From contig WALU01000021.1 in the NCBI GenBank assembly GCA_015522685.1, positions 1 to 22,579 of the forward strand: DNA of 22,579 nt, in the 5' to 3' direction. Below the pieces are notes generated by a model. That model did no database searches and was not told the origin of the DNA. It saw only the letters and a list, made by a program, of their open reading frames with translations. This document shows, piece after piece, positions 3,191-21,022 of this stretch. A program made the position numbers and the translations under genes. This DNA is from Thermoproteota archaeon. Lineage in GTDB: Archaea; Korarchaeota; Korarchaeia; Korarchaeales; Korarchaeaceae. Within the stretch, counting starts at the first letter, position 1. Each line of letters begins with the position of its first letter.

Positions 3191-6100
3191 ATGGAAGACA
3201 AATTCCTAATCCTACTGATGATAACACTCATTTTACCTATTCAGTTCTCTCTAGCTAGTACTCCTTCGAGAACACTCGTAGTTCATACAGGGACTGCTTG
3301 TACAACAGGAGACCTATACTTCCAATTGCCTAGTGAAGCCTTATCCTCCGCAAGTCCTGGAGACAGGATAATAATATGCCCTGGCATCTATCACGACAAC
3401 CTAAAGGTGGAGGTTAGCAACATAGTGATCGAGGGATTCGGCAATCCTTCCGACGTGAAGATAGAGGCCTTAAATAATACCCAGCATGCTATTGAGCTTA
3501 GAAATGTTAGAAAAGTAACTGTCAAAAATATCACGGTTTCTGGAGCATTAGGATCACAAATAGCCGGGATTTACGCTCAACTATCCTCAGAGAGCATTAT
3601 AAAGAATGTAAGAGCAATAGATAACTACTTTGGTATAGACATCGTGTCGAGCTCCAGTATGACCTTGGAAAACGTGAACACAGTGAACAATACAAATGTC
3701 GGAATCAACCTTGAGGGCGCAGTCATCTCTAGTCTCTATAACTCCACATCTGAAGGTAACAGGATAGGATTACTCTTTCTCTTCTCAAATAGCCTTCAGA
3801 TAGATAAAGTTAATGCCACAGATAACTCAGAAGGGGGATTTCTGCTCAAATATTCGACTAATAATACACTTTCTCACTTGATAGCTGGTCAAAATGGTTG
3901 GTATGGCTTCTACTTCCAGGATTCTGATGGAAATGAGTTGTCGGAATCTTCCGCTACGAATAATACAGCTTCTGGAAGCGATGGATATGGACTCTATCTA
4001 TACCTAAAGTCGGAGAATAATGATATTCATAACCTGAATGTCAGTTATAATGTCTATGGAATAACTCTCGCCTCTGCCTCATCTAGAAATAAAATAGCAA
4101 GCTCTATCTCAACGAATAACACAGTTGCGGGTATATACATAGAGAACAGTGATAGAAATTCAGTCAATGCTCACATAAAAGGTAGTATGTATGGAGTATG
4201 GATTCAAGATGGCAGCGAGAACGAGGTCGGAGGTGAGATAGAGGGATGCAGGTGGGGAGTCTTCATATCTGGATTGAGCAAATCATCAAACAATACTATA
4301 AGGAAAGCGAAGATACACGATAATACTTATTCTGGTATAGTGATTAAAGGGAATAGATCTAAAGGCAATGTAATTACTAAAATTTCTTCCTATAATAATA
4401 CCCTACTAGGCATAGATCTCGCTGGTAACTATGTAACACCGAACGATGGAGCTTTAAGCAACGGACCGAATGATCTAATGGACTATCCTATCATAAAATG
4501 GGCTGCTGTTTATGGGGATAAGATGATAGTAAGGGGCTATATAAATAAGGAGGGCAATGAAACGGAGAATAGAATCTTTGATAATGTAACTGTCGAGATA
4601 TATCAGTCTGATAATGACAGAAGTGGATATGGAGAAGGTATGCGCTATCTAGGCAGCCTTGAATCCAGAAATGGAGAATTTCTCGGATGGATAAATCTTT
4701 CACCTGATCTTTCCTGGCATAGCATAAATATAACAGGAACGGCAACACTTCTACCGCACGGCACTTCTGAATTCGGTCCGACAATAACAGCCCCTACTGT
4801 AAGTACGAACCTCACTATATCTAAGTCAATTAATCCCTCAACCGTTCTACCTAATTCCACAGCAGAGGTCCTACTTCTGCTTAGAAATTATGGTAATGGA
4901 ACTGCTTATAATGTTACAGTGATAGATGAGCTTCCTGATGGGATGAAGTATGATAATGAGACCTCTAAAATCAATGGAAATCCTATAGAACCTAAGATCG
5001 AAGGGAACAATTTAACATGGGTGGTGAGCATTCCTTCACATTCAGAGGTTAAGATAAGATTTAATGTGACGATAACAGCGTCTCCTGGATCTACTCTAAA
5101 AAATGCAGTTGTCTTCGAGGGAAATGATGGGGCTGGAAATGACATTGACGATGTCAACGTAATAGCACCTCCTATAATAAACGCTGTGAAGGAAGCGAGT
5201 CCTGAGGTCGTAGATGTAAATGGTTTAGTTCAATACAAGATCACTCTCTCTAATACTGGAGGTTTACGCGCTCTCCTCGTAATCGAGGATAGAGTGCCTA
5301 GCGGGATGGAATATGTGAATTCTAGTCTAACTTCAAATGCTAGTATATCCGGGCCAAAGATTTCTGGAAATAAGATCAGATACAATCTATCTCTAGATCC
5401 AGGAAAGAAGATATTCATCTCTTATTCGCTTAAGGCGCTTACTGAGGGTAAGAAAGAGAATAAGCTTTATCTTAACGGGAGTTTTACAGCATCAGCCTCA
5501 GTCCTAGTGAGAGATCCTCCCTCAGATAGCTCTGGTGGGTCATCAGATAGATCAGAGCATAGCTACTCATCATCGGGCACTCGTTATGGAGGAGGGACTC
5601 CTCCTCCATGTAGATGGTTCTTCTATAACTCAAGAAATAAAAATAACGCGGCTAGAAGCGAGGAAAATGAAGTAAAGAGCTATAGAATGAGCCATCCACC
5701 AATAGTTCTCGTTTCCTTAGGACCTTCAAGTGTTAAAGCGGAGCAAGGATCTCCTAGACAGAGCACTAGGACTAAGACTAGCGGTAACTCTATGGGCCCT
5801 TCAGAAACTTATAAGGAAAATAAAGGAATCTCTATGATAGTAGTTGACATAGCAGCTACTCCCACACAAGCGGAAACTGATACTACGATATCGTTCATCG
5901 TGAAGGTAAGTAACATAGGAGATGGCGCAAAAGATAATCTTTCCCTGATAGTAGATCTATCTAATGGACTTGATTATATTAGAGGTAGCTCTATGATTGG
6001 TGGGATTGCTAGAGAGCCGGATAATAATAACAACAAGCTGAACTGGAATATAGGGACTCTTTATTCAGGTAAGGCCGTTGAGGTAAGCTTTAGGGCTAAA

Positions 6101-7066
6101 CTACTGGCTACATCAGGTCAATTCAATGTGAAGGCGATAGCAGCCTCTTCATCTGACTCAGTAATAGTCTCTGTTAAACCTAAAACCAAACCCGTGGTGC
6201 AATCACCTCCACCTCCGCCTCCAGCGGTAGTTAATTTGAAAGCATCTTCAATAACCTCAGGTAGCGAGGTCCTTATACGCATATCTTTAACAAGCCCCAC
6301 GGGAGCTAAAGGAGTTAAGGTGCTTACCACATTGAATAACCTGACCTATTTGGATGGAAGCGCTATGATAGGAAGCTTGCCTGCAGACACAGAGGTTAAT
6401 GGAAATACTCTCAGGTGGGTCATTAGCATATCGAAGGAGGGCTCTGCTGCAATAAGCTTCAAGGCGAGGCAATCCAATGAGGAGATGAATGGAGGAGCTG
6501 CGAGGATATACCTACCAGAATTTGGTAAATCTGCTGAGATAAGAGCATCCTTTGAGCCCAAGCAGAGGGGTGTAGTACCACCACCGTTCAATATAGAGCT
6601 TCCATCTCTATCATCAATGCCTTGGTGGTTGATACTTCTACTCTCGGCTGCCATCCCTACGTTTTTCACATATAGAAGGAAGAGAGAAAAGAGAAGAATA
6701 GTAATAGATTATAGAGCATTAAAGTGGGCAGTTAGAAGGGGGCTATTAGATGAGTTGATACAGGAATACAAGATCCTAATCTCAACTGAGACGTTCAATA
6801 AAGTGAGCAAGGATAGCGATCTAATGCCCATAATCGAGAGAGATATAATGAATAACTTTATCATCGTGAAAAAAGCTCCAAAAAGGAAAATAATGGTAGG
6901 AGAGGTAGAGAAAGATCTTACCTCAGCCCTTGGATTAGCTGATAAGGAAAAACTACCGGTATATATAGGAGAAGAATATTTATTAAAAGATCTAAAGAAA
7001 AGAGGATTCAATATTAAGCTAATCAGAGAAGCTCCTCCCCCTATAGCTAGAACAAACCTGCCTTAG
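3191..7066 (+). CDS. Large cell-surface glycoprotein: signal peptide, NosD/CASH-type beta-helix, four DUF11-like domains, TM anchor, cytoplasmic PIN-like domain
   Basis: Hydrophobic N-terminus, repeated 'N..GI.l..s..N.i' beta-helix coils, many N-x-S/T sequons, DUF11-like starts (LTISKS...N.G...VTVIDELPDG; AVKEA...NTG...EDRVPSG), Ser-rich and poly-Pro linkers, TM segment PWWLILLLSAAIPTFFTY followed by RRKREKRR, then about 120 further residues. Confidence 0.85.
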   Translation: MEDKFLILLMITLILPIQFSLASTPSRTLVVHTGTACTTGDLYFQLPSEALSSASPGDRIIICPGIYHDNLKVEVSNIVIEGFGNPSDVKIEALNNTQHAIELRNVRKVTVKNITVSGALGSQIAGIYAQLSSESIIKNVRAIDNYFGIDIVSSSSMTLENVNTVNNTNVGINLEGAVISSLYNSTSEGNRIGLLFLFSNSLQIDKVNATDNSEGGFLLKYSTNNTLSHLIAGQNGWYGFYFQDSDGNELSESSATNNTASGSDGYGLYLYLKSENNDIHNLNVSYNVYGITLASASSRNKIASSISTNNTVAGIYIENSDRNSVNAHIKGSMYGVWIQDGSENEVGGEIEGCRWGVFISGLSKSSNNTIRKAKIHDNTYSGIVIKGNRSKGNVITKISSYNNTLLGIDLAGNYVTPNDGALSNGPNDLMDYPIIKWAAVYGDKMIVRGYINKEGNETENRIFDNVTVEIYQSDNDRSGYGEGMRYLGSLESRNGEFLGWINLSPDLSWHSINITGTATLLPHGTSEFGPTITAPTVSTNLTISKSINPSTVLPNSTAEVLLLLRNYGNGTAYNVTVIDELPDGMKYDNETSKINGNPIEPKIEGNNLTWVVSIPSHSEVKIRFNVTITASPGSTLKNAVVFEGNDGAGNDIDDVNVIAPPIINAVKEASPEVVDVNGLVQYKITLSNTGGLRALLVIEDRVPSGMEYVNSSLTSNASISGPKISGNKIRYNLSLDPGKKIFISYSLKALTEGKKENKLYLNGSFTASASVLVRDPPSDSSGGSSDRSEHSYSSSGTRYGGGTPPPCRWFFYNSRNKNNAARSEENEVKSYRMSHPPIVLVSLGPSSVKAEQGSPRQSTRTKTSGNSMGPSETYKENKGISMIVVDIAATPTQAETDTTISFIVKVSNIGDGAKDNLSLIVDLSNGLDYIRGSSMIGGIAREPDNNNNKLNWNIGTLYSGKAVEVSFRAKLLATSGQFNVKAIAASSSDSVIVSVKPKTKPVVQSPPPPPPAVVNLKASSITSGSEVLIRISLTSPTGAKGVKVLTTLNNLTYLDGSAMIGSLPADTEVNGNTLRWVISISKEGSAAISFKARQSNEEMNGGAARIYLPEFGKSAEIRASFEPKQRGVVPPPFNIELPSLSSMPWWLILLLSAAIPTFFTYRRKREKRRIVIDYRALKWAVRRGLLDELIQEYKILISTETFNKVSKDSDLMPIIERDIMNNFIIVKKAPKRKIMVGEVEKDLTSALGLADKEKLPVYIGEEYLLKDLKKRGFNIKLIREAPPPIARTNLP

Positions 7067-7082
7067 TATTCCTTATTCATCT

Positions 7083-8717
7083 TTATTCCATCTTTAACTC
7101 ATCTTTAAGTCTCATCTTTTCATCCTTGAATATCCTTAGATCCATTATGTCTAACTTGTCCGAAATTACCGGCTTGAATTCCATCTTGGCTAGTATATCC
7201 TTATCCAAGTCAACACCAGGTGCTATCTCTTCAAGAATCAAACCATCTCGTGTTAGACTGAAAACAGCTCTCTCCGTGATATACTTAATTTCTTTTCCCA
7301 TTTCTAAGGCGACTGACCCATTGAAAATTATCTTGTATACTTTATCTACGAACTTGGTTATGGGGCCATCTTCTTCTATGAGAAGTTTCCCATCACTCAC
7401 TTTAATCTTTTTCTTACCGGCTGTGAAGCCCCCACCGAAGAATACTCTAGGAGATCCAGCAGCAATTACAGGGAATCCACCGGGACCTGGTATCCTACTG
7501 AGGAGCATAGAGGAATTAATATTTCCCTTCTTGTCTATTTGCATGAATCCTAATGATGCTGCATCGATTATACCTCCCTCATAATTTGTGAACATATCTG
7601 GCATGGGTATTATAGCAAAAGGCCCTATTGAAATACCAAAGTCCTCACCCATGAGAGCCAGCCCACCCCATGGCCCCGATTCTATTGTTGTAATTATAAA
7701 ATCTGATATTTCCTCCTCAGCAGCTATATTGGTGACCATGGTTGGTATTCCTATACCCAAGTTAACGAGAATTGGTCCTTCCTTTTCTTTAACAAGCCTA
7801 ACCATCTCTAGGGCAATTCTCCTAGCAATTATCTTTCTATCACCGAGCTTTATCTTAGGGAGAAGGCTGGGAGTTATCGGGGGTATTATCCTTCCACTTA
7901 TTCTTGGGTCGAACATTATGGTTCCACCCTGCCACTGGTATTGTGAAGGAGCTATTACCAAGTAATCAACTAATGGACCAGGAACGTGGACGCTTTTCGG
8001 GTTTAACGAGCCAAATCTAGCTTCCCTTTCTACTTGAGCTATTACGATGCCTGGATTAGGTCTTGCCTTGGAAGCCTGAGCTATAGCAAGCACAGTCCCA
8101 TATATCCCCTCCTTATCCATCGTGATATTACCCATCTCATCTGCAGTGGTCCCTCTTATGAAGGAAATGTTGGGCTTGGGTGCCTCATAGAAAAGGTATT
8201 CTCTTCCTGCTATTTCTATTAAAGATGTTTTACAGGTTCTTCTCTCTTTTGCGAGGTTATTTACAGCTCCCCCATCTTGCCTGGGATCTAGGAATGTACC
8301 CCTCCCTATGTATGTTATTAGCCCAGGCCTGCCCGATGCTATCTCCCTAAACCAATAAGCAGCCATCCCTATAGACCAAGAATAAAGTTCTATTCTATTT
8401 TTCATAGTCAGCTTCTGAATCCAAGGGGCCCATCCGATGAATGGAAGGAGCATACCTCTAATGAGTTCCTGATCTTTCTCCTCATATAACCTTCTAGCTA
8501 CAAAATCTAGCGCCCTGTTTGGAGTGGCGGGGAGAGTATCTGATATTATAAAGAGGTTCTTAGGGTGGCCTGTGTCTCTATATCTCTCCCAAAGCTTCAT
8601 TATTAGATACTCTGGAGTTGTAGCCATGTTAAAACCTGAAATAGCTAGAACAGAGTTATCTTGTATTCTAGAGAGAGCATAATTGACCTCAACGAACTTG
8701 TTATAAGGAAGGGGCAT
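7083..8717 (-). CDS. Acyl-CoA:acetate/3-ketoacid CoA transferase (fused family I, Pct/YdiF-like)
   Basis: ISGF, GTFLDPRQDGG, RGTTADEMGNIT, VNLGIGIP, catalytic ESG motif, GPGGF, YITERAVF, EIAPGVD. Confidence 0.92.
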   Translation of the reverse strand: MPLPYNKFVEVNYALSRIQDNSVLAISGFNMATTPEYLIMKLWERYRDTGHPKNLFIISDTLPATPNRALDFVARRLYEEKDQELIRGMLLPFIGWAPWIQKLTMKNRIELYSWSIGMAAYWFREIASGRPGLITYIGRGTFLDPRQDGGAVNNLAKERRTCKTSLIEIAGREYLFYEAPKPNISFIRGTTADEMGNITMDKEGIYGTVLAIAQASKARPNPGIVIAQVEREARFGSLNPKSVHVPGPLVDYLVIAPSQYQWQGGTIMFDPRISGRIIPPITPSLLPKIKLGDRKIIARRIALEMVRLVKEKEGPILVNLGIGIPTMVTNIAAEEEISDFIITTIESGPWGGLALMGEDFGISIGPFAIIPMPDMFTNYEGGIIDAASLGFMQIDKKGNINSSMLLSRIPGPGGFPVIAAGSPRVFFGGGFTAGKKKIKVSDGKLLIEEDGPITKFVDKVYKIIFNGSVALEMGKEIKYITERAVFSLTRDGLILEEIAPGVDLDKDILAKMEFKPVISDKLDIMDLRIFKDEKMRLKDELKME

Positions 8718-15651: not shown

Positions 15652-16593
15652 TTAAGGAGTGAAGAAATAGGCTATAGAAAAGGAGAATAGGTATATGATG
15701 CTGGACTCAAGAGCAAAACCTATAGGCTTTGATGATAAAGTTACAGATACAAGCCCTGATATTAAGAGCAGTATGGGGAGGTTGGGAGTATTACCAACAA
15801 ATCCTAATAATGGGGAGGACATGACTCTCGCGAGCAATACGTTGGATATGCCTATGGCGGAGGATATAACTAGAGTCATGGCCTTTAAGGATCTTACTCT
15901 AGCTTTCCAAGCGCCCGTGATGCGCCTGAACTCCTTCAGCATATTTGAAGTCCTCCTCATGACCGAAGCTAGCATTCTCCTATCTGAAATCTCCTTCATT
16001 ATCCCTGCCCATTCGGGTAACTGGAAATCGCGCAGGAAATCATCAACAACTAACCTCTCATAAAAACCCAAGCCCTTCAGGGCATAGATCCTTCCACTTC
16101 CCTTCTCTAAATATGAAGCCACCAAGTCGGCTGCTGACGGATCTCCCTCAGGGATTCTTGTATTGAGACCAGGAATTATGGGGTAGATTAAAAGAAGCAT
16201 GAGGAGATGATAAAACTTGAGGCATATCCTTCCTAAAGTAATTGCTAGAGATATACCGACAGATATGGACATACCAAGAGTTAGAATAAGATATATCCAT
16301 CTCTCCCTGGAGACAACATCTGCTTCCAGTAACTGTGATATGAGAGATAGAGAGGAACTGAGGGAGGCTTTAGGATCTCCTCCCTCTAGTATACTTGAGA
16401 GAATCTTCCCTATGTCGCCTAATTCCCTCCTACTCAAGGAGTCTCTAGCTCTTTCCCCCTCGACAGCCACTTCCTCATATGCGGATACCATCCTGAGTCC
16501 CAGGGCGGGCGATGAAGCCCACCCTAGCACTAACTTCTGAGCCATATTAGCCTTGGTAAGGTAGTCCTGCGACCCTCTTAGAAACTTCCTCAT
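15652..16593 (-). CDS. TadC/type II secretion F-like polytopic membrane platform protein (divergent)
   Basis: Two halves, each a helical soluble segment followed by 2-3 hydrophobic helices. Directly downstream of a secretion ATPase. The start may instead be the ATG at 16545 (MAQKLVLG). Confidence 0.6.
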   Translation of the reverse strand: MRKFLRGSQDYLTKANMAQKLVLGWASSPALGLRMVSAYEEVAVEGERARDSLSRRELGDIGKILSSILEGGDPKASLSSSLSLISQLLEADVVSRERWIYLILTLGMSISVGISLAITLGRICLKFYHLLMLLLIYPIIPGLNTRIPEGDPSAADLVASYLEKGSGRIYALKGLGFYERLVVDDFLRDFQLPEWAGIMKEISDRRMLASVMRRTSNMLKEFRRITGAWKARVRSLKAMTLVISSAIGISNVLLARVMSSPLLGFVGNTPNLPILLLISGLVSVTLSSKPIGFALESSIIYLFSFSIAYFFTP

Positions 16594-17932
16594 TGGTCTC
16601 GGCTCCCTCTAGCTCTTTGACATAGTTTAACCATCTTATAGATGGAGAAGGAGGATCATACCAGGATCCATCTACCCAGTATCTTATCTCTATCACCTTT
16701 CTATAATCCATTCTAATGACTAGCGTCTTATCTGGTAATGTTAGACCCCAAGAAGACCACTTCAGCAATAAACCACTGAAGTCTTTGGCATGCGTTGTGG
16801 CCAATACCCTTAAACCGCTGAAAGAAGTCAAATCAAGGGCTTCGGCATGCTCTCTCCCTAAAATCTCACCTAAAAAGACTAAATCAGGATTCCTATGCAA
16901 AAGAAACCTGACGAAATCTGATTTGCTCGAGGTAACTTCGTATGGTGTATGATGCATCCCATATCTTGTTAGATCCTCTATCTCTCTAACTTCCTCCACG
17001 CTCACTATCCTTAAATGCCTAGGTAAGCTAGCTAAAATAGAATTGGAGAGAGTAGTCTTACCAACTCCTGTTTTACCGAAGATAAGCACTGGATCGCTGC
17101 CATTTAGCCTATCTAGAATTGTTGCAGCTTCATATATACCTATCGTCTCTAGGGAAATGAGCCTAGGGAGACTTAGCTTGGACATTGAGCTTAAATTTCT
17201 GATATCTGCCGCTCCAAGAGAGGCTGGAGGCATATCTAACGCCATTCTGAAGTGGAAGTAGCCTAGGTCTAAATCTATCTCTGAGAGGGGAGATTTTATA
17301 TCTAATCCGGCGTTTACATCGGCTTCTATCAGGGTGATTAATTTCTCTAAATCGATCTCATCAAGTGAGTAATTTCTCACGACGAACCTACCATACTCAA
17401 TATGATCTAGATAGAGAGGGCCAAGGAAATGCACATATCCCTCAGTAATGTCATTAGAGGTCATTATAGCGAGAAGAGGCCATATCTTGGTAGATCTTAC
17501 GGCAGCTTCTTCTGCAAGGTTGTACTCATCCCCCAATCCAAGCTCCTCCAAGATATTTAAGGCCTTCTCAATCCTTAGCTGAATTGCTTTCCAGAGAAGG
17601 TCTCCCTGCGAGCTATAATCCATAGGATATACTCCCTTGAGTCTAATAGACAACAAAATGGAGGCCACTTGCCTTCCTTTAGTTAAAGAATTTGGGAAAG
17701 CCTTGGCATTCCTCCCCTCGATCCCCATAAATCCCCCAAGGAACTCTAAATCTCTTGGAATGTTGACGCGATTCGCTTCAAGCAGCTTGCACTTTCTCCC
17801 AAATAGAGTAGCCTTAAGTCTTCCTATTTTAATACCAAAGGCCAGTTTTAACGCATCATTTTTGCATTTAATTAAGAGATCTGACGCTATTCTCTCTGCC
17901 TCTTCCTCTCCAATCCCTATGAGCATATTCAC
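16547..17932 (-). CDS. Type II/IV secretion-type ATPase (VirB11/TadA/CpaF family)
   Basis: Walker A GKTGVGKTT, Asp box SVEEVREI, Walker B RNPDLVFLGE, His box LATTHA. GTG start with GGAGG SD. Confidence 0.88.
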   Translation of the reverse strand: MNMLIGIGEEEAERIASDLLIKCKNDALKLAFGIKIGRLKATLFGRKCKLLEANRVNIPRDLEFLGGFMGIEGRNAKAFPNSLTKGRQVASILLSIRLKGVYPMDYSSQGDLLWKAIQLRIEKALNILEELGLGDEYNLAEEAAVRSTKIWPLLAIMTSNDITEGYVHFLGPLYLDHIEYGRFVVRNYSLDEIDLEKLITLIEADVNAGLDIKSPLSEIDLDLGYFHFRMALDMPPASLGAADIRNLSSMSKLSLPRLISLETIGIYEAATILDRLNGSDPVLIFGKTGVGKTTLSNSILASLPRHLRIVSVEEVREIEDLTRYGMHHTPYEVTSSKSDFVRFLLHRNPDLVFLGEILGREHAEALDLTSFSGLRVLATTHAKDFSGLLLKWSSWGLTLPDKTLVIRMDYRKVIEIRYWVDGSWYDPPSPSIRWLNYVKELEGAETNEEVSKRVAGLPYQG

Positions 17933-18551
17933 GCCTCCTTAATGATATTCCCAAGAGAAATACTGCTAGGCCAAGTGCTATCAAAGGTAAGGAGTTTAAT
18001 CCCTCAGAAGAATAAACTTTAATCGATACTGGATCCTCTGAGGGATTGTAAAGTAAGACTGAGTAATCACCACAGGGAATTCTTGTGATATTACCATTCT
18101 TCGTTATCCTCGCATCCTTTGGGATATCTTCTACTATATCGCAGAGTATTGAAGGGTTCTCGGATTTGATGGTTATATTCCATAACCCCTCCTCAACTGG
18201 GATTAGATATCCTCCATCTATAAACTCCTTTGTTATGTTAAGGGAGACGCAATGGCTCTCTATTTTGAGAGATAACTTGCCTTTATTGCCCTTAATGAGT
18301 GGAAAATATACATCCTTCTCCTCAATGTAGTCTCCTTTCCCTAAATATCTAACATTCAACTTCCTCAGATCAATGCATAAGGAATCATTAGCTTCCAAAA
18401 CCAAGCTTGTTCCATTGCAGGAAATTATTTCATATGTTCTGTCCTCTACTACTGATTCTAATATCCTTTTTCTTTTCATGGATCCCAAAGATCCAAGCAT
18501 GAACAGAAAAACTCCGATCCCTACTACGATATAAGGTAAAATCTCCTTCAT
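17868..18551 (-). CDS. Membrane protein with N- and C-terminal TM helices flanking a beta-rich domain
   Basis: Hydrophobic segments ILPYIVVGIGVFLFMLGSLG and LPLIALGLAVFLLGISL. ATGA overlap with the upstream gene. Confidence 0.75.
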   Translation of the reverse strand: MKEILPYIVVGIGVFLFMLGSLGSMKRKRILESVVEDRTYEIISCNGTSLVLEANDSLCIDLRKLNVRYLGKGDYIEEKDVYFPLIKGNKGKLSLKIESHCVSLNITKEFIDGGYLIPVEEGLWNITIKSENPSILCDIVEDIPKDARITKNGNITRIPCGDYSVLLYNPSEDPVSIKVYSSEGLNSLPLIALGLAVFLLGISLRRREYAHRDWRGRGRENSVRSLN

Positions 18552-21022
18552 GAAAATCTTCTCCTTGCTATCAAATAAACCAGAAGCGTAACTACTACAA
18601 GCATTATTGTATCTGGTGTAATACTGCTTTCTTCTCCTTTAGAATAGATCATGCACCTAGCTGAGAATCTCCTCTCTATCTTCCTTGTCCTTGTGGCCCT
18701 TTCACTGCTGGATGTAATGAAATGAGATTCTTCCTTTCCTTTCTCAATTGACTGTTTTATCCGGGCTTTATTTTCGGATGAATTAACTTCTGAGACTATG
18801 AAATCTAACTGGCTGAATTTTACGGTTCCTTTACCTATATATGCCCATCTAACAGACCAATTACCAGTAACATTGACTAGAAGATATATAACTCTTCTGC
18901 TAATGACGGGGAAATCTGCTACCGTTCTACGAGAGGGATTCAATATCCATATTCGCCCCTTGACTCCTTCAGATGGCGTAACCATCACAGTAACATTTTG
19001 ACCAATCGTTGGATTAGAGGGTATCACTGCTACATTAAATCTCGCCTCATAAGCTCTTATTTCTCGTTTAGATTTATTTCTAGGCTTTTTCTTAATGGAG
19101 GTGATGCTAGTAGAAGATCTTGAATGCTCATACTCGGAAATAGTCTTACTATGGCCTTTAACCTTCTTAGACCTTTCACTTGTAGTTCTCTGAGTCTTTA
19201 ACCCCTCGGTACTGGTAGCCGTGGTCATTGCACTCGTGGTGGAAGTAGCTGAAGATTTCATAGTTACTGAGATTGTTTGAGTCCGATGGACTGTAACTAT
19301 TTTGTTGTAAGATACCTCAGCTCCATCGATATCTATGGCATTTACCACTATTTTCAGCTGAGAAGCATTCGATGGGACCGAATAGTGAGCGACTCCTTCA
19401 CCCTCGAAATGATAGATGGAATCGTTGATTTGTATCGTGATCTTCACGCCCGAAGAATCATCTGTAGCCCTTACTGAGATGGCAATATTATCTCCTGGTC
19501 TCAGCTCATCCTTATCTAGAGATATCTCCACTTTAGGAGGGATGTTCTCAAGGAGAACATCCCATATCTTCGAACTCCAACCGAAATCGTTCTTAGCCAC
19601 AGCTTCTATCTTATACTTGCCTTGTTTAGCATCTTTAGGGATCTCTATTGTGTAAAATCCTTCGCTATCTGCATCAATCTCCTTGTTCATATAACTTATC
19701 GAGCCAGAGACGTTAGTACCCCGAATCTCTATCTTATATTTATCTCCTCTGTGAACAGTTAATGGTAAACCTCCCTCAATGACTGGTGGCCTTCCAACTT
19801 CGATCTGTGCATTGGAGGAAGCAGTAGCTCCATCCATGTCTACTGCTTCTGCCTCTATAGATAAATCTCCCTCAAAGTCATTTGGAATGTTGTAGAAGAT
19901 AGTCTCTCCATTCTCGCTTAAATTCCACTCTTCATGAATCTCCTTTCCATCCGCATAAAGCGAAACTTTTAACTCAGTGGAATCATCCTGAGCAGTTACG
20001 TTTATCTTGACGCTTTGGCCTGGGACGGCCTTCTTCTTATCTATGCTAAGCTTTACCTCAGGAGGTACGTTCACTATGGTGGTTGTCCAGCTTCCATTAC
20101 GGGATCCATCTACGTCCTTAACTATGGCATTTAAGTTATAAGATCCAGCGGACACGTCTCTAGGGATCTCTATAACATTGTCTCCTCTTACAAGACTATA
20201 TTCCTTACCAAAGGCTGACAAGCTACCACTTACAGAATCTCCATCGCCCTCACTTACTGTGATCTTTATTAAATCTGATCTGTGGACTTGGGGTGGTATA
20301 TCCACGCTGATCTCAGGTGGTCTTCCTATAACAGTAAATGAACGAGTTTTGCTATCTCTAGCGGAAACACCTGAGTAATACTTATACACAGTGAATGTAA
20401 TGCTTTTGGATCCGGCAGGTTGATTCACAAAGTTTACAGATGCGTACTCCTTGAAACTACCTCTAGATATTCTGCTTAACGAGTAGGTATGAGATCCTAG
20501 CTTAGCAGAAACTGTCAGGGAACCAACTCCATCATCTATAGCCCCAAGACCACTCGCTTCCAGAGCTATCCTGTCCTTCTTGCTTATAGTAGTGGGAGAT
20601 ATACTAACGGACCATGAGCTTGGGATCGCTACTATATAGGACTTCCCTAAGTTTAGCGTATCTGAATCGGAGTATCCATCCACTTGGCATGTTATCGTAA
20701 TCGAGAGGTATGCATACTTCCCTGGAGAATTCCTAATCCTGACATATACGCTACCACTATCCGAGCTTTTAGAGATACTCTTAGAGATGAGCTCTGTATT
20801 ACTTCCACTGGCATCTACCCCTAGATTCGTGTTGCTAGGATCGCTTGTCGTTAAATCGAACCAAAACTTCACTATGAGGTCTCCTGGATCTGTTGCCTGT
20901 GGCATGCTTGAGGGGCTAGCTCTCGTGAGTTTGATGGAGCACCCCGCTCCTCTCACCTGAGGAGACCAGAGAAGGAAAAGTAGAATTAGCAAAAAGGACG
21001 CTTCAGTAACGGCCTGCATCAA
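18548..21022 (-). CDS. Secreted, C-terminally anchored Ig/cadherin-like repeat surface protein
   Basis: Signal peptide (FLLILLFLLWSPQVRG), repeated beta domains with GRPP/NxPP, AxDDS and AxDxDG motifs, Ser/Thr-rich stalk, C-terminal TM IMLVVVTLLVYLIA followed by RRR. Start is TTG 21022 or ATG 21019. Confidence 0.8.
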   Translation of the reverse strand: MMQAVTEASFLLILLFLLWSPQVRGAGCSIKLTRASPSSMPQATDPGDLIVKFWFDLTTSDPSNTNLGVDASGSNTELISKSISKSSDSGSVYVRIRNSPGKYAYLSITITCQVDGYSDSDTLNLGKSYIVAIPSSWSVSISPTTISKKDRIALEASGLGAIDDGVGSLTVSAKLGSHTYSLSRISRGSFKEYASVNFVNQPAGSKSITFTVYKYYSGVSARDSKTRSFTVIGRPPEISVDIPPQVHRSDLIKITVSEGDGDSVSGSLSAFGKEYSLVRGDNVIEIPRDVSAGSYNLNAIVKDVDGSRNGSWTTTIVNVPPEVKLSIDKKKAVPGQSVKINVTAQDDSTELKVSLYADGKEIHEEWNLSENGETIFYNIPNDFEGDLSIEAEAVDMDGATASSNAQIEVGRPPVIEGGLPLTVHRGDKYKIEIRGTNVSGSISYMNKEIDADSEGFYTIEIPKDAKQGKYKIEAVAKNDFGWSSKIWDVLLENIPPKVEISLDKDELRPGDNIAISVRATDDSSGVKITIQINDSIYHFEGEGVAHYSVPSNASQLKIVVNAIDIDGAEVSYNKIVTVHRTQTISVTMKSSATSTTSAMTTATSTEGLKTQRTTSERSKKVKGHSKTISEYEHSRSSTSITSIKKKPRNKSKREIRAYEARFNVAVIPSNPTIGQNVTVMVTPSEGVKGRIWILNPSRRTVADFPVISRRVIYLLVNVTGNWSVRWAYIGKGTVKFSQLDFIVSEVNSSENKARIKQSIEKGKEESHFITSSSERATRTRKIERRFSARCMIYSKGEESSITPDTIMLVVVTLLVYLIARRRFS

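Follow-up and report, generated by a model that had tools for sequence, protein, structure and literature searches.

What might a nuclease-like fold be doing at the inner end of a protein whose bulk lies outside the cell? The question is raised by a single gene on contig WALU01000021.1 (GenBank assembly GCA_015522685.1) from a korarchaeon of the family Korarchaeaceae. The stretch of DNA analysed here, positions 1 to 22,579 of the forward strand, is referred to as the window throughout. The gene (3191..7066, forward strand, as are all its parts given below) is open for 1291 codons, ends with a stop codon at 7064-7066 and encodes a putative surface glycoprotein of type I whose PIN-like tail would lie in the cytoplasm. 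An earlier note on this DNA, written from the letters alone, had singled out the long open reading frame and quoted the tail sequence, both of which match the translation of 3191..7066.

PIN domains are among the commonest domains of archaea and are known as free nucleases or toxins. The layout of the present protein, an ectodomain followed by one transmembrane (TM) helix and a PIN domain, appears to be undescribed: the earlier note had named no described archaeal system of this architecture, and literature searches on membrane-anchored or transmembrane PIN proteins and on the PIN proteins of Korarchaeota yielded no description of such a layout. The tail is predicted to adopt a PIN fold with a conserved but remodelled pocket, forms part of a genuine, vertically inherited gene and, in our tentative reading, serves to dock a cytoplasmic partner at the membrane.

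Fold of the cytoplasmic tail

Beyond the single TM helix PWWLILLLSAAIPTFFTY (aa 1144-1161; 6620..6673), which forms the second hydrophobic peak of the protein, and a positive-inside stretch enriched in lysine and arginine (RRKREKRR, aa 1162-1169; 6674..6697), the polypeptide runs on for 122 residues, from IVIDYRAL to KLIREAPPPIARTNLP and the stop codon. The earlier note had let this feature begin at 6617, which is one codon ahead of the helix; the folded domain itself spans aa 1169-1278 (6695..7024), as judged from an AlphaFold2 model, structural comparison with VIA-align and Foldseek, and residue counts.

Searches with family models do not recognize this domain. Pfam and NCBIfam returned noise only for the tail (BatA, GAAD and SecA2 at E values of about 0.1), no PIN family model was among its Pfam matches at E up to 10, and a profile of seven tails compared with the sequences in the PDB gave nothing meaningful (best E 0.28). 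The assignment comes from structure prediction. Based on an alignment of 12 sequences, AlphaFold2 yielded a model of the tail with a predicted local distance difference test score (pLDDT) of 88.6 and a predicted template modelling score of 0.81. Its elements follow each other in the order b1-a-a-b2-a-a-b3-loop-a-b4-a-b5 and thus in that of the PIN superfamily, a three-layer alpha/beta/alpha fold of the b1-a-b2-a-b3-a-b4-a-b5 type with a parallel sheet. Upon comparison of the model with 48,161 chains by VIA-align, the best match was SSO1118 of Sulfolobus solfataricus (2mdt, Z 12.5), Nob1 of Pyrococcus horikoshii (PhNob1; 2lcq) reached Z 11.0 with a root-mean-square deviation (rmsd) of 2.3 over 101 residues, and many VapC toxins as well as the PIN domains of Utp24, SMG5/6, Rrp44 and HARP scored between Z 8 and 11. 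The top ranks are all PIN proteins, and Z falls from 6.9 to 5.5 where unrelated Rossmann-like folds start. Foldseek found 0 matches in the PDB at E <= 0.001, and its weak top rows are PIN proteins. In the ESM Atlas the best scores were 0.85-0.88, which is under the lead level of 0.9, and some of the clusters are labelled DUF3368, PIN_6 or PIN. A homodimer prediction for the tail, run without controls, scored 0.02. On the strength of the model, the tail is a PIN-fold domain, in agreement with the expectation of the earlier note.

Conservation of the fusion and membrane topology

The fusion of tail and ectodomain is not an artefact, and the tail is not a chance open frame. The same tail is present in nine full-length relatives of 1211-1302 aa (identity 53-67%), one of which bears the source label of a NosD-domain protein from Candidatus Korarchaeota archaeon. 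An exhaustive phmmer search with the tail alone among 1.84 billion representative proteins returned two clusters (1295 and 1256 aa), both of them full-length orthologues that are matched at the C terminus; a tail standing alone or joined to another partner did not appear. A profile of the tail run over 40 genomes of the class matched 19, which comprise the window's genome, 17 of the 20 others of its genus and one weak match in another genus; the three genomes of the genus without a match are 86, 70 and 63% complete. Within the genus all but two of the matches sit in frames of 1258-1320 aa. The first exception is a 533-aa frame truncated by a contig end (G019), the second a gene that lies in three overlapping frames (499 + 378 + 411 aa) of an 80%-complete metagenome-assembled genome (MAG; G025). 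A split gene was considered for the 411-aa frame and rejected, as this is the same gene broken into three overlapping frames, with breaks far from the TM-tail junction. The split orthologue (L076:1192-4980, G025:C92) may reflect assembly frameshifts or a pseudogene. A separately encoded tail in relatives, which the earlier note had named as the mark of a spurious fusion, was found neither among the nine relatives nor by the phmmer and genome profile searches. Across the junction, at 6554-6772, the unitigs of a public DNA run agree with the window without a single difference or indel, a weak support insofar as the run possibly stems from the window's own sample, and 6924-7300 is without contig coverage.

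The tail is conserved to the same degree as the rest of the folded protein. Mean all-pairs identity amounts to 0.75 for the PIN core, 0.67-0.78 for the folded ectodomains (0.71-0.78 for the DUF11 repeats) and 0.44 for the linkers, including the S/G/P-rich linker that splits the DUF11 repeats. A scan for related loci gave nine, all in MAGs labelled Thermoproteota or Crenarchaeota. The gene is single-copy, lies between topoisomerase and CoA-transferase genes, and has no antitoxin-like or defence gene next to it in the annotation of the window. The order HAD hydrolase, topoisomerase, this gene, CoA transferase and methyltransferase, continuing to SMC, is kept in two high-quality genomes of the genus (G011 and G016). 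In view of its distribution in the genus, the conserved synteny and the equal conservation of tail and ectodomains, this is a core gene, vertically inherited and under purifying selection over its whole length.

Several features place the tail inside the cell. Strongly hydrophobic windows of 19 residues occur only twice, in the N-terminal signal region and at aa 1137-1161. Eight lysine or arginine residues are found among the 15 residues after the TM helix versus none among the 15 before it, all 29 N-X-S/T sequons fall within aa 1-1142 and none in the tail, and beta-helix and DUF11 modules are usually extracellular. According to the positive-inside rule, the sequon distribution and the usual location of these modules, the tail should be cytoplasmic, as the earlier note had assumed. 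The start of the TM helix (P1144, W1145, W1146) is invariant in 10 of 10 aligned sequences, and in all members of the family seen the PIN domain begins at most nine residues past the helix. We also considered a C-terminal sorting signal of the archaeosortase type and ruled it out, because 130 folded, conserved residues lie after the helix.

A family of membrane-anchored PIN tails

The weak match in another genus is the end of a 2968-aa protein composed of 15 DUF11 stretches, a PT-rich linker, a TM helix, the residues RRRP and a tail of 159 residues. Using this single tail as query, and then a profile of seven such giant tails, 43 genomes of the phylum were searched. Nine genomes have the giant-type ending on frames that measure 2,682-3,328 aa, five more have contig-cut copies, and the profile of the seven giant tails also recovers the window-type tails. 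Every tail found reads as a TM helix, a few basic residues and the pattern h-V-h-D-Y/F/R-x-x-L-K. The two types of tail align to each other by hhalign at 97.3% probability (E 2.6e-11, 90 columns), and the model of a giant tail (pLDDT 88.0) has the same best structural match as that of the window, 2mdt (Z 13.6, rmsd 2.4 over 114 of 119 residues). The earlier note had advised a hunt for other proteins built of ectodomain, TM helix and PIN domain, and the DUF11 giants of other genera, which carry these homologous tails, are such proteins. Taken together, long frames with a tail of this kind occur in 26 of the 43 genomes, 5 of 10 genera and 2 of 5 families; the window-type tail is limited to one genus (18 of 21 genomes). 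When the tail of the 2968-aa giant was used to look for full-length relatives, none emerged among proteins of 1632-5194 aa, and among those of 280-2000 aa one fragment only was obtained.

A third carrier is a protein of 175 aa, in which a hydrophobic N-terminus directly precedes a PIN-like domain (hhalign to the giant tails, 89%). It is present in a patchy manner in 12 of the 43 genomes, and the window's genome has two copies (G000:C4:35355-35879, reverse strand, locus L067:553-1080; and G000:C19:3794-4288), where Glu replaces the first Asp. We propose one membrane-anchored PIN family, specific to Korarchaeota and found on at least three carriers: the protein of 1.3 kaa, the DUF11 giants of 2.7-3.3 kaa and proteins of about 175 aa without an ectodomain.

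Small membrane proteins are encoded beside some of these carriers. A 104-aa protein with two TM helices is encoded just downstream of the 175-aa protein (L067:180-494), and at four loci in three genera a DUF11 giant that ends in a PIN tail is immediately followed by a gene for a small two-TM hairpin protein (L015:10737-11198; L026:1992-2465; L031:529-1014 and L032:998-1408, the latter two on the reverse strand). Two of the four hairpin proteins show a sub-threshold match to the winged-helix family HTH_24 (E 0.0017 and 0.015). Such a hairpin protein might be a partner of the PIN tail at the membrane, a pairing that recalls PIN toxins with their DNA-binding antitoxins. The window's genome yielded no homologue of the hairpin protein from G019.

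Relationship to known PIN families

Among known families, the closest in structure is COG2405/DUF3368 (PF11848), represented by SSO1118 (2mdt), the best match for the models of both the window tail and the giant tail. The sections of Matelska et al. (2017) drawn on here give 2mdt as the structure of this family and place the family in the VapC group, with 2-5 site residues and with members predicted to be active as well as inactive. Members of COG2405/DUF3368 are free proteins of about 120-180 aa, often encoded beside transcription-factor-like genes and presumed to form toxin-antitoxin pairs, whereas the domain of the window is the cytoplasmic end of a 1291-aa surface protein and has no such neighbour. 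At the sequence level, the giant-tail profile aligns to stand-alone korarchaeal DUF3368-type PIN proteins (hhalign 91%, E 1e-6, 117 columns) and to six korarchaeal Nob1 proteins (85%). Together with 2mdt, the former alignment lends substance to the 'DUF3368-like' guess of the earlier note. PF11848 itself gave no match to the window tail. In the databases, a fragment of 283 aa that shares 99% identity with a giant tail bears a precomputed PF11848 label, whereas hmmscan of that giant tail yielded no PF11848 match up to an E value of 1.

Among proteins of solved structure, significant sequence similarity was seen for Nob1 only: the giant-tail profile matches PhNob1 (2lcq) in the PDB at E 1.3e-8, residues 6-129 aligning to 5-134. 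In this comparison the motifs hhhD and T....KD coincide, as does the acid that opens the helix following b3. Nob1 differs in having 'TDD' where the tails have 'T/I-G-x', in being soluble and acting on pre-30S particles, and in its C-terminal zinc ribbon with four cysteines; the window tail is free of cysteine and extends 13 residues beyond its last strand. It is not matched by PF17146 (PIN_6) either. VapC proteins (PF01850) share the fold, with many chains at Z 9-11, and the same first Asp, but the window tail differs from them in having no Pfam match, no antitoxin gene and an N-terminal part of 1168 residues fused to it. Another structural match is PIN.COG4956 (YacL type, 3ix7; Z 8.9). In the portions of the 2017 classification drawn on here, this bacterial type is the only membrane-linked PIN family, characterized by four N-terminal TM helices and a TRAM domain. 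It lacks a large ectodomain, while the window protein has a giant glycosylated ectodomain, one TM helix and no TRAM match.

Direct profile comparisons of the window tails were insignificant throughout: hhalign gave 3.5% against the VapC-type PF01850 proteins of the same genome (seven of the nine found), 5% against four stand-alone DUF3368 proteins and 0.45% against six korarchaeal Nob1 proteins. The placement of the window tail therefore runs via the giant tails, and by this route the tail is filed as a putative divergent branch of the Nob1/COG2405 (PIN_6-DUF3368) lineage, outside any Pfam family.

Residues of the putative active-site pocket

Residue counts were taken over 17 distinct window-type tails, with R1169 as position 1. 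Invariant in all 17 are the Asp at position 5 (D1173), the Tyr at 6 (Y1174), the Thr at 33 (T1201), the Lys at 36 (K1204) and the Asp at 40 (D1208), all of which are located where PIN active sites lie, namely at the end of b1 and in the first turns of the helix after b2. Position 32 (E1200) is Glu and acidic in 16 of 17 tails, positions 72 and 74 (E1240 and D1242) are Asp or Glu in 17 of 17, and position 92 (G1260) is Gly in 16 of 17. Position 93 (E1261) is variable (E in 4, R in 10, D in 1 and N in 2 tails), and position 94 (E1262) is Glu or Asp, acidic in 16 of 17. An acid is found at 93 or 94 in every tail, and the window itself has Glu-Glu there. K1178 is a further key residue of the domain.

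The passages of Veith et al. (2012) drawn on here assign the Mn2+ site of PhNob1 to D12 at the end of b1, D82 at a helix start and D99/D100, and report that D12N abolishes cleavage, while D100N leads to unspecific degradation. The tails were put into the Nob1 register through the alignment of giant tails with 2lcq and a reading without gaps that takes the conserved Gly of 'RGF' as its anchor. On this register D5 corresponds to D12, the acid at position 74, at the start of helix 73-85, to D82, G92 to D99 and position 93 to D100. The canonical Glu of VapC and COG2405 aligns to K36 or V37, depending on the alignment. In the giant tails the D, T and D are invariant (7 of 7), Gly and Arg or Lys occupy the D99 and D100 positions, and no acid stands at the Glu position.

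The earlier note had read the site as possibly degenerate, with the first Asp kept, Lys at the second acidic position and Gly at the last Asp. The kept Asp and the Gly after strand 4 hold, the Lys becomes Lys or Val with the choice of alignment, and the degeneracy is less than had been thought, as acids at positions 5, 32, 72, 74 and 94 are present in 16-17 of the 17 tails. Since the acids at 5, 32, 40, 72, 74 and 94 are kept and the D99/D100 and Glu positions are changed, the putative pocket is conserved but remodelled.

Apparent absence of Nob1 from one korarchaeal family

In the passages of Veith et al. (2012) drawn on here, which rest on very few korarchaeal genomes, Nob1 was not found in Korarchaeota. 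Of the 36 genomes that represent the window's family, several of which are 99% complete, none is matched by the Nob1 model PF17146; in the other four families of the phylum it matches 6 of 7. The whole genome of the window, searched in six frames with PF17146, gave nothing, and a profile of six korarchaeal Nob1 proteins yielded only chance matches of zinc-ribbon size in the 36 genomes of the family. The Nob1 gap is thus narrowed to one korarchaeal family and persists over 36 genomes. This family holds 25 of the 26 genomes with membrane-anchored PIN tails of apparent Nob1 lineage, and the one genome from another family has both the tail and Nob1. As a separate observation, a Nob1 frame in another family (PIN domain and zinc ribbon; L065:1459-2676, G040:C171) continues into a region with multiple TM helices and forms a frame of 406 aa; this may be a Nob1 genuinely fused to a membrane part or the read-through of two genes.

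Proposed role of the tail

We propose that the signal peptide, beta-helix and DUF11 repeats lie outside the cell, that one TM helix crosses the membrane and that the PIN domain of 110 residues is held against its cytoplasmic face. There, the tail would act as a constitutive membrane-held docking module for an RNA or an RNA-protein partner, the docking pocket being formed by the remodelled conserved acids D1173, E1200, D1208, D1242 and E1262. Metal-dependent cleavage by the tail would be at most weak or regulated; the tail would tie a cytoplasmic partner to an envelope protein and would be neither a VapC-type toxin nor a triggered suicide nuclease. Our confidence in this reading falls a little short of even (a probability of roughly 0.45). 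It is favoured because the gene is a core gene in housekeeping synteny without an antitoxin or defence neighbour, and because the catalytic positions erode across the carriers and the pocket is nevertheless conserved. Moreover, the function shared by the tail family probably needs no complete catalytic site, since the giant tails have lost the D99/D100 and Glu acids yet keep the architecture. Two points weigh against docking. All 17 tails carry acids at the positions of D12 and D82 and a further one at 93 or 94, and in PhNob1 it is D12N and not D100N that abolishes cleavage, which leaves room for a real nuclease. In addition, the net charge of the tails is near neutral (-1 to +6) and gives no positive sign of nucleic-acid binding.

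The earlier note had favoured a one-component transmembrane sensor-effector. In the form weighed here, contact or damage at the ectodomain (by a virus, a neighbouring cell or envelope stress) would cause clustering or a conformational change and thereby switch on a PIN ribonuclease. A receptor-like architecture is consistent with this proposal, and so are the first Asp, the helix-start acid and the acid after strand 4, kept in 16-17 of the 17 tails. PIN nucleases often work as dimers, and a membrane tether would be a plausible way to render their activity clustering-dependent. We consider this scenario unlikely, however, given a core, syntenic gene in a housekeeping context with neither defence neighbours nor an inhibitor gene, Gly at the D99 equivalent in 16 and Arg at the D100 equivalent in 10 of 17 tails, homologous giant tails that lost still more of the site, and an ectodomain that nothing ties to any ligand, to sensing or to signalling. 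At the opposite extreme, the tail might be an inert cytoplasmic plug, an exapted compact PIN fold without a ligand whose sole task would be to fix the topology, to anchor the protein or to keep its spacing in a surface lattice. The short distance of at most nine residues between helix and domain in all family members seen and the partial loss of catalytic positions would fit a plug, and the sources drawn on here list inactive PIN domains, such as Utp23 and part of COG2405. Yet a plug would not require D5, Y6, T33, K36 and D40 to be invariant in 17 of 17 tails, nor the D, T and D in seven giant tails, and the tail is as conserved as the ectodomains; we regard it as quite improbable.

The Nob1 gap suggests a further alternative, according to which the tail is a membrane-tethered stand-in for the missing Nob1 that matures the 3' end of 16S rRNA or docks 30S precursors. 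The proposal draws on the distribution of PF17146 (0 of 36 family genomes versus 6 of 7 elsewhere in the phylum) and the mere chance matches of the six-Nob1 profile, in line with the absence noted by Veith et al. (2012) in the passages cited above. It also draws on the fit of the tail model to 2lcq (Z 11.0), the giant-tail profile match at E 1.3e-8 and the kept D12 and D82 equivalents. The odds for a replacement are very low, because only one genus has the window-type tail (18 of its 21 genomes), and the four other genera of the family also are without Nob1, with tails more degenerate or absent. Furthermore, the tail has no zinc ribbon and no cysteine, its direct profile comparison with korarchaeal Nob1 is insignificant (0.45%) and its D100 equivalent is variable. 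The ectodomain-less form is patchy as well; occurring in only 12 of 43 genomes, it was rejected as a universal substitute for Nob1. The most far-reaching version, to which we assign only a slim chance, is that the window's family lost free Nob1, the endonuclease acting at the 16S rRNA 3' end, and keeps PIN domains of this lineage only as membrane-anchored envelope tails, the tail of the window's genus being a tethered site of ribosome maturation or docking. If true, this would tie the last step of small-subunit maturation, or the placement of ribosomes, to the cell envelope.

Other features of the protein and the window

The N-terminal part of the protein consists of a putative signal peptide and several extracellular modules. 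The signal peptide region (aa 1-23, MEDKFLILLMITLILPIQFSLAS; 3191..3259) contains the top hydrophobic window of the protein, with a Kyte-Doolittle score of 2.25 at aa 5-23; its cleavage site is placed from the sequence, with no predictor behind it. It is followed by a right-handed, NosD-like beta-helix ectodomain at about aa 49-430 (3335..4480), recognized by Pfam (Beta_helix, 2.1e-19; NosD, 1e-14) and by NCBIfam (seven para_beta_helix repeats). The DUF11 or Ig-like repeats (aa 536-775 and 881-995; 4796..6175) match Pfam DUF11 in three stretches (6.3e-19) and DUF7927, and are split by the poorly conserved S/G/P-rich linker (aa 776-880, within 4796..6175). A proline linker, the last Ig-like module and a membrane-proximal stalk (aa 996-1143; 6176..6619), delineated by conservation in the alignment and devoid of a family match of their own, lead to the TM helix.

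Two short conserved elements lie outside the folded domains. Within the S/G/P-rich linker, islands invariant in 10 of 10 sequences are found at 5597-5722 (aa 803-844), namely P804-P805-P806-C807-x-W809 and Y831 ... P837-I-V-x-V-S-L-G844, which could serve as a processing, lipidation or docking site. The C-terminal end (aa 1279-1291; 7025..7063), where the pLDDT of the model is 61 and falls to 48, bears the conserved motif REAPPP...LP, in which R1279, E1280, A1281 and P1282-1284 are invariant or nearly so among 10 sequences. This R-E-A-P-P-P ... L-P end is a candidate short linear motif for a cytoplasmic partner; its conservation drops in the deeper branches of the genus.

Elsewhere in the window, the reverse strand of 15652-21022 carries a gene cluster with a T2SSE-type secretion ATPase (5.2e-13), probably a locus for a type IV pilus-like surface structure. 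The cluster also encodes an 824-aa protein with a weak Ig-like/MG2 match, a 227-aa protein and a 313-aa protein without a Pfam match.

Implications

Small and confidently folding, the tail is directly accessible to assays of metal binding, RNA binding and cleavage. It sets a concrete candidate beside a puzzle dating from 2012, namely that Korarchaeota appear to lack Nob1. Above all, a predicted PIN domain behind a single TM helix on a glycosylated surface protein points to an unrecognised link between the envelope of these archaea and cytoplasmic RNA or protein partners.

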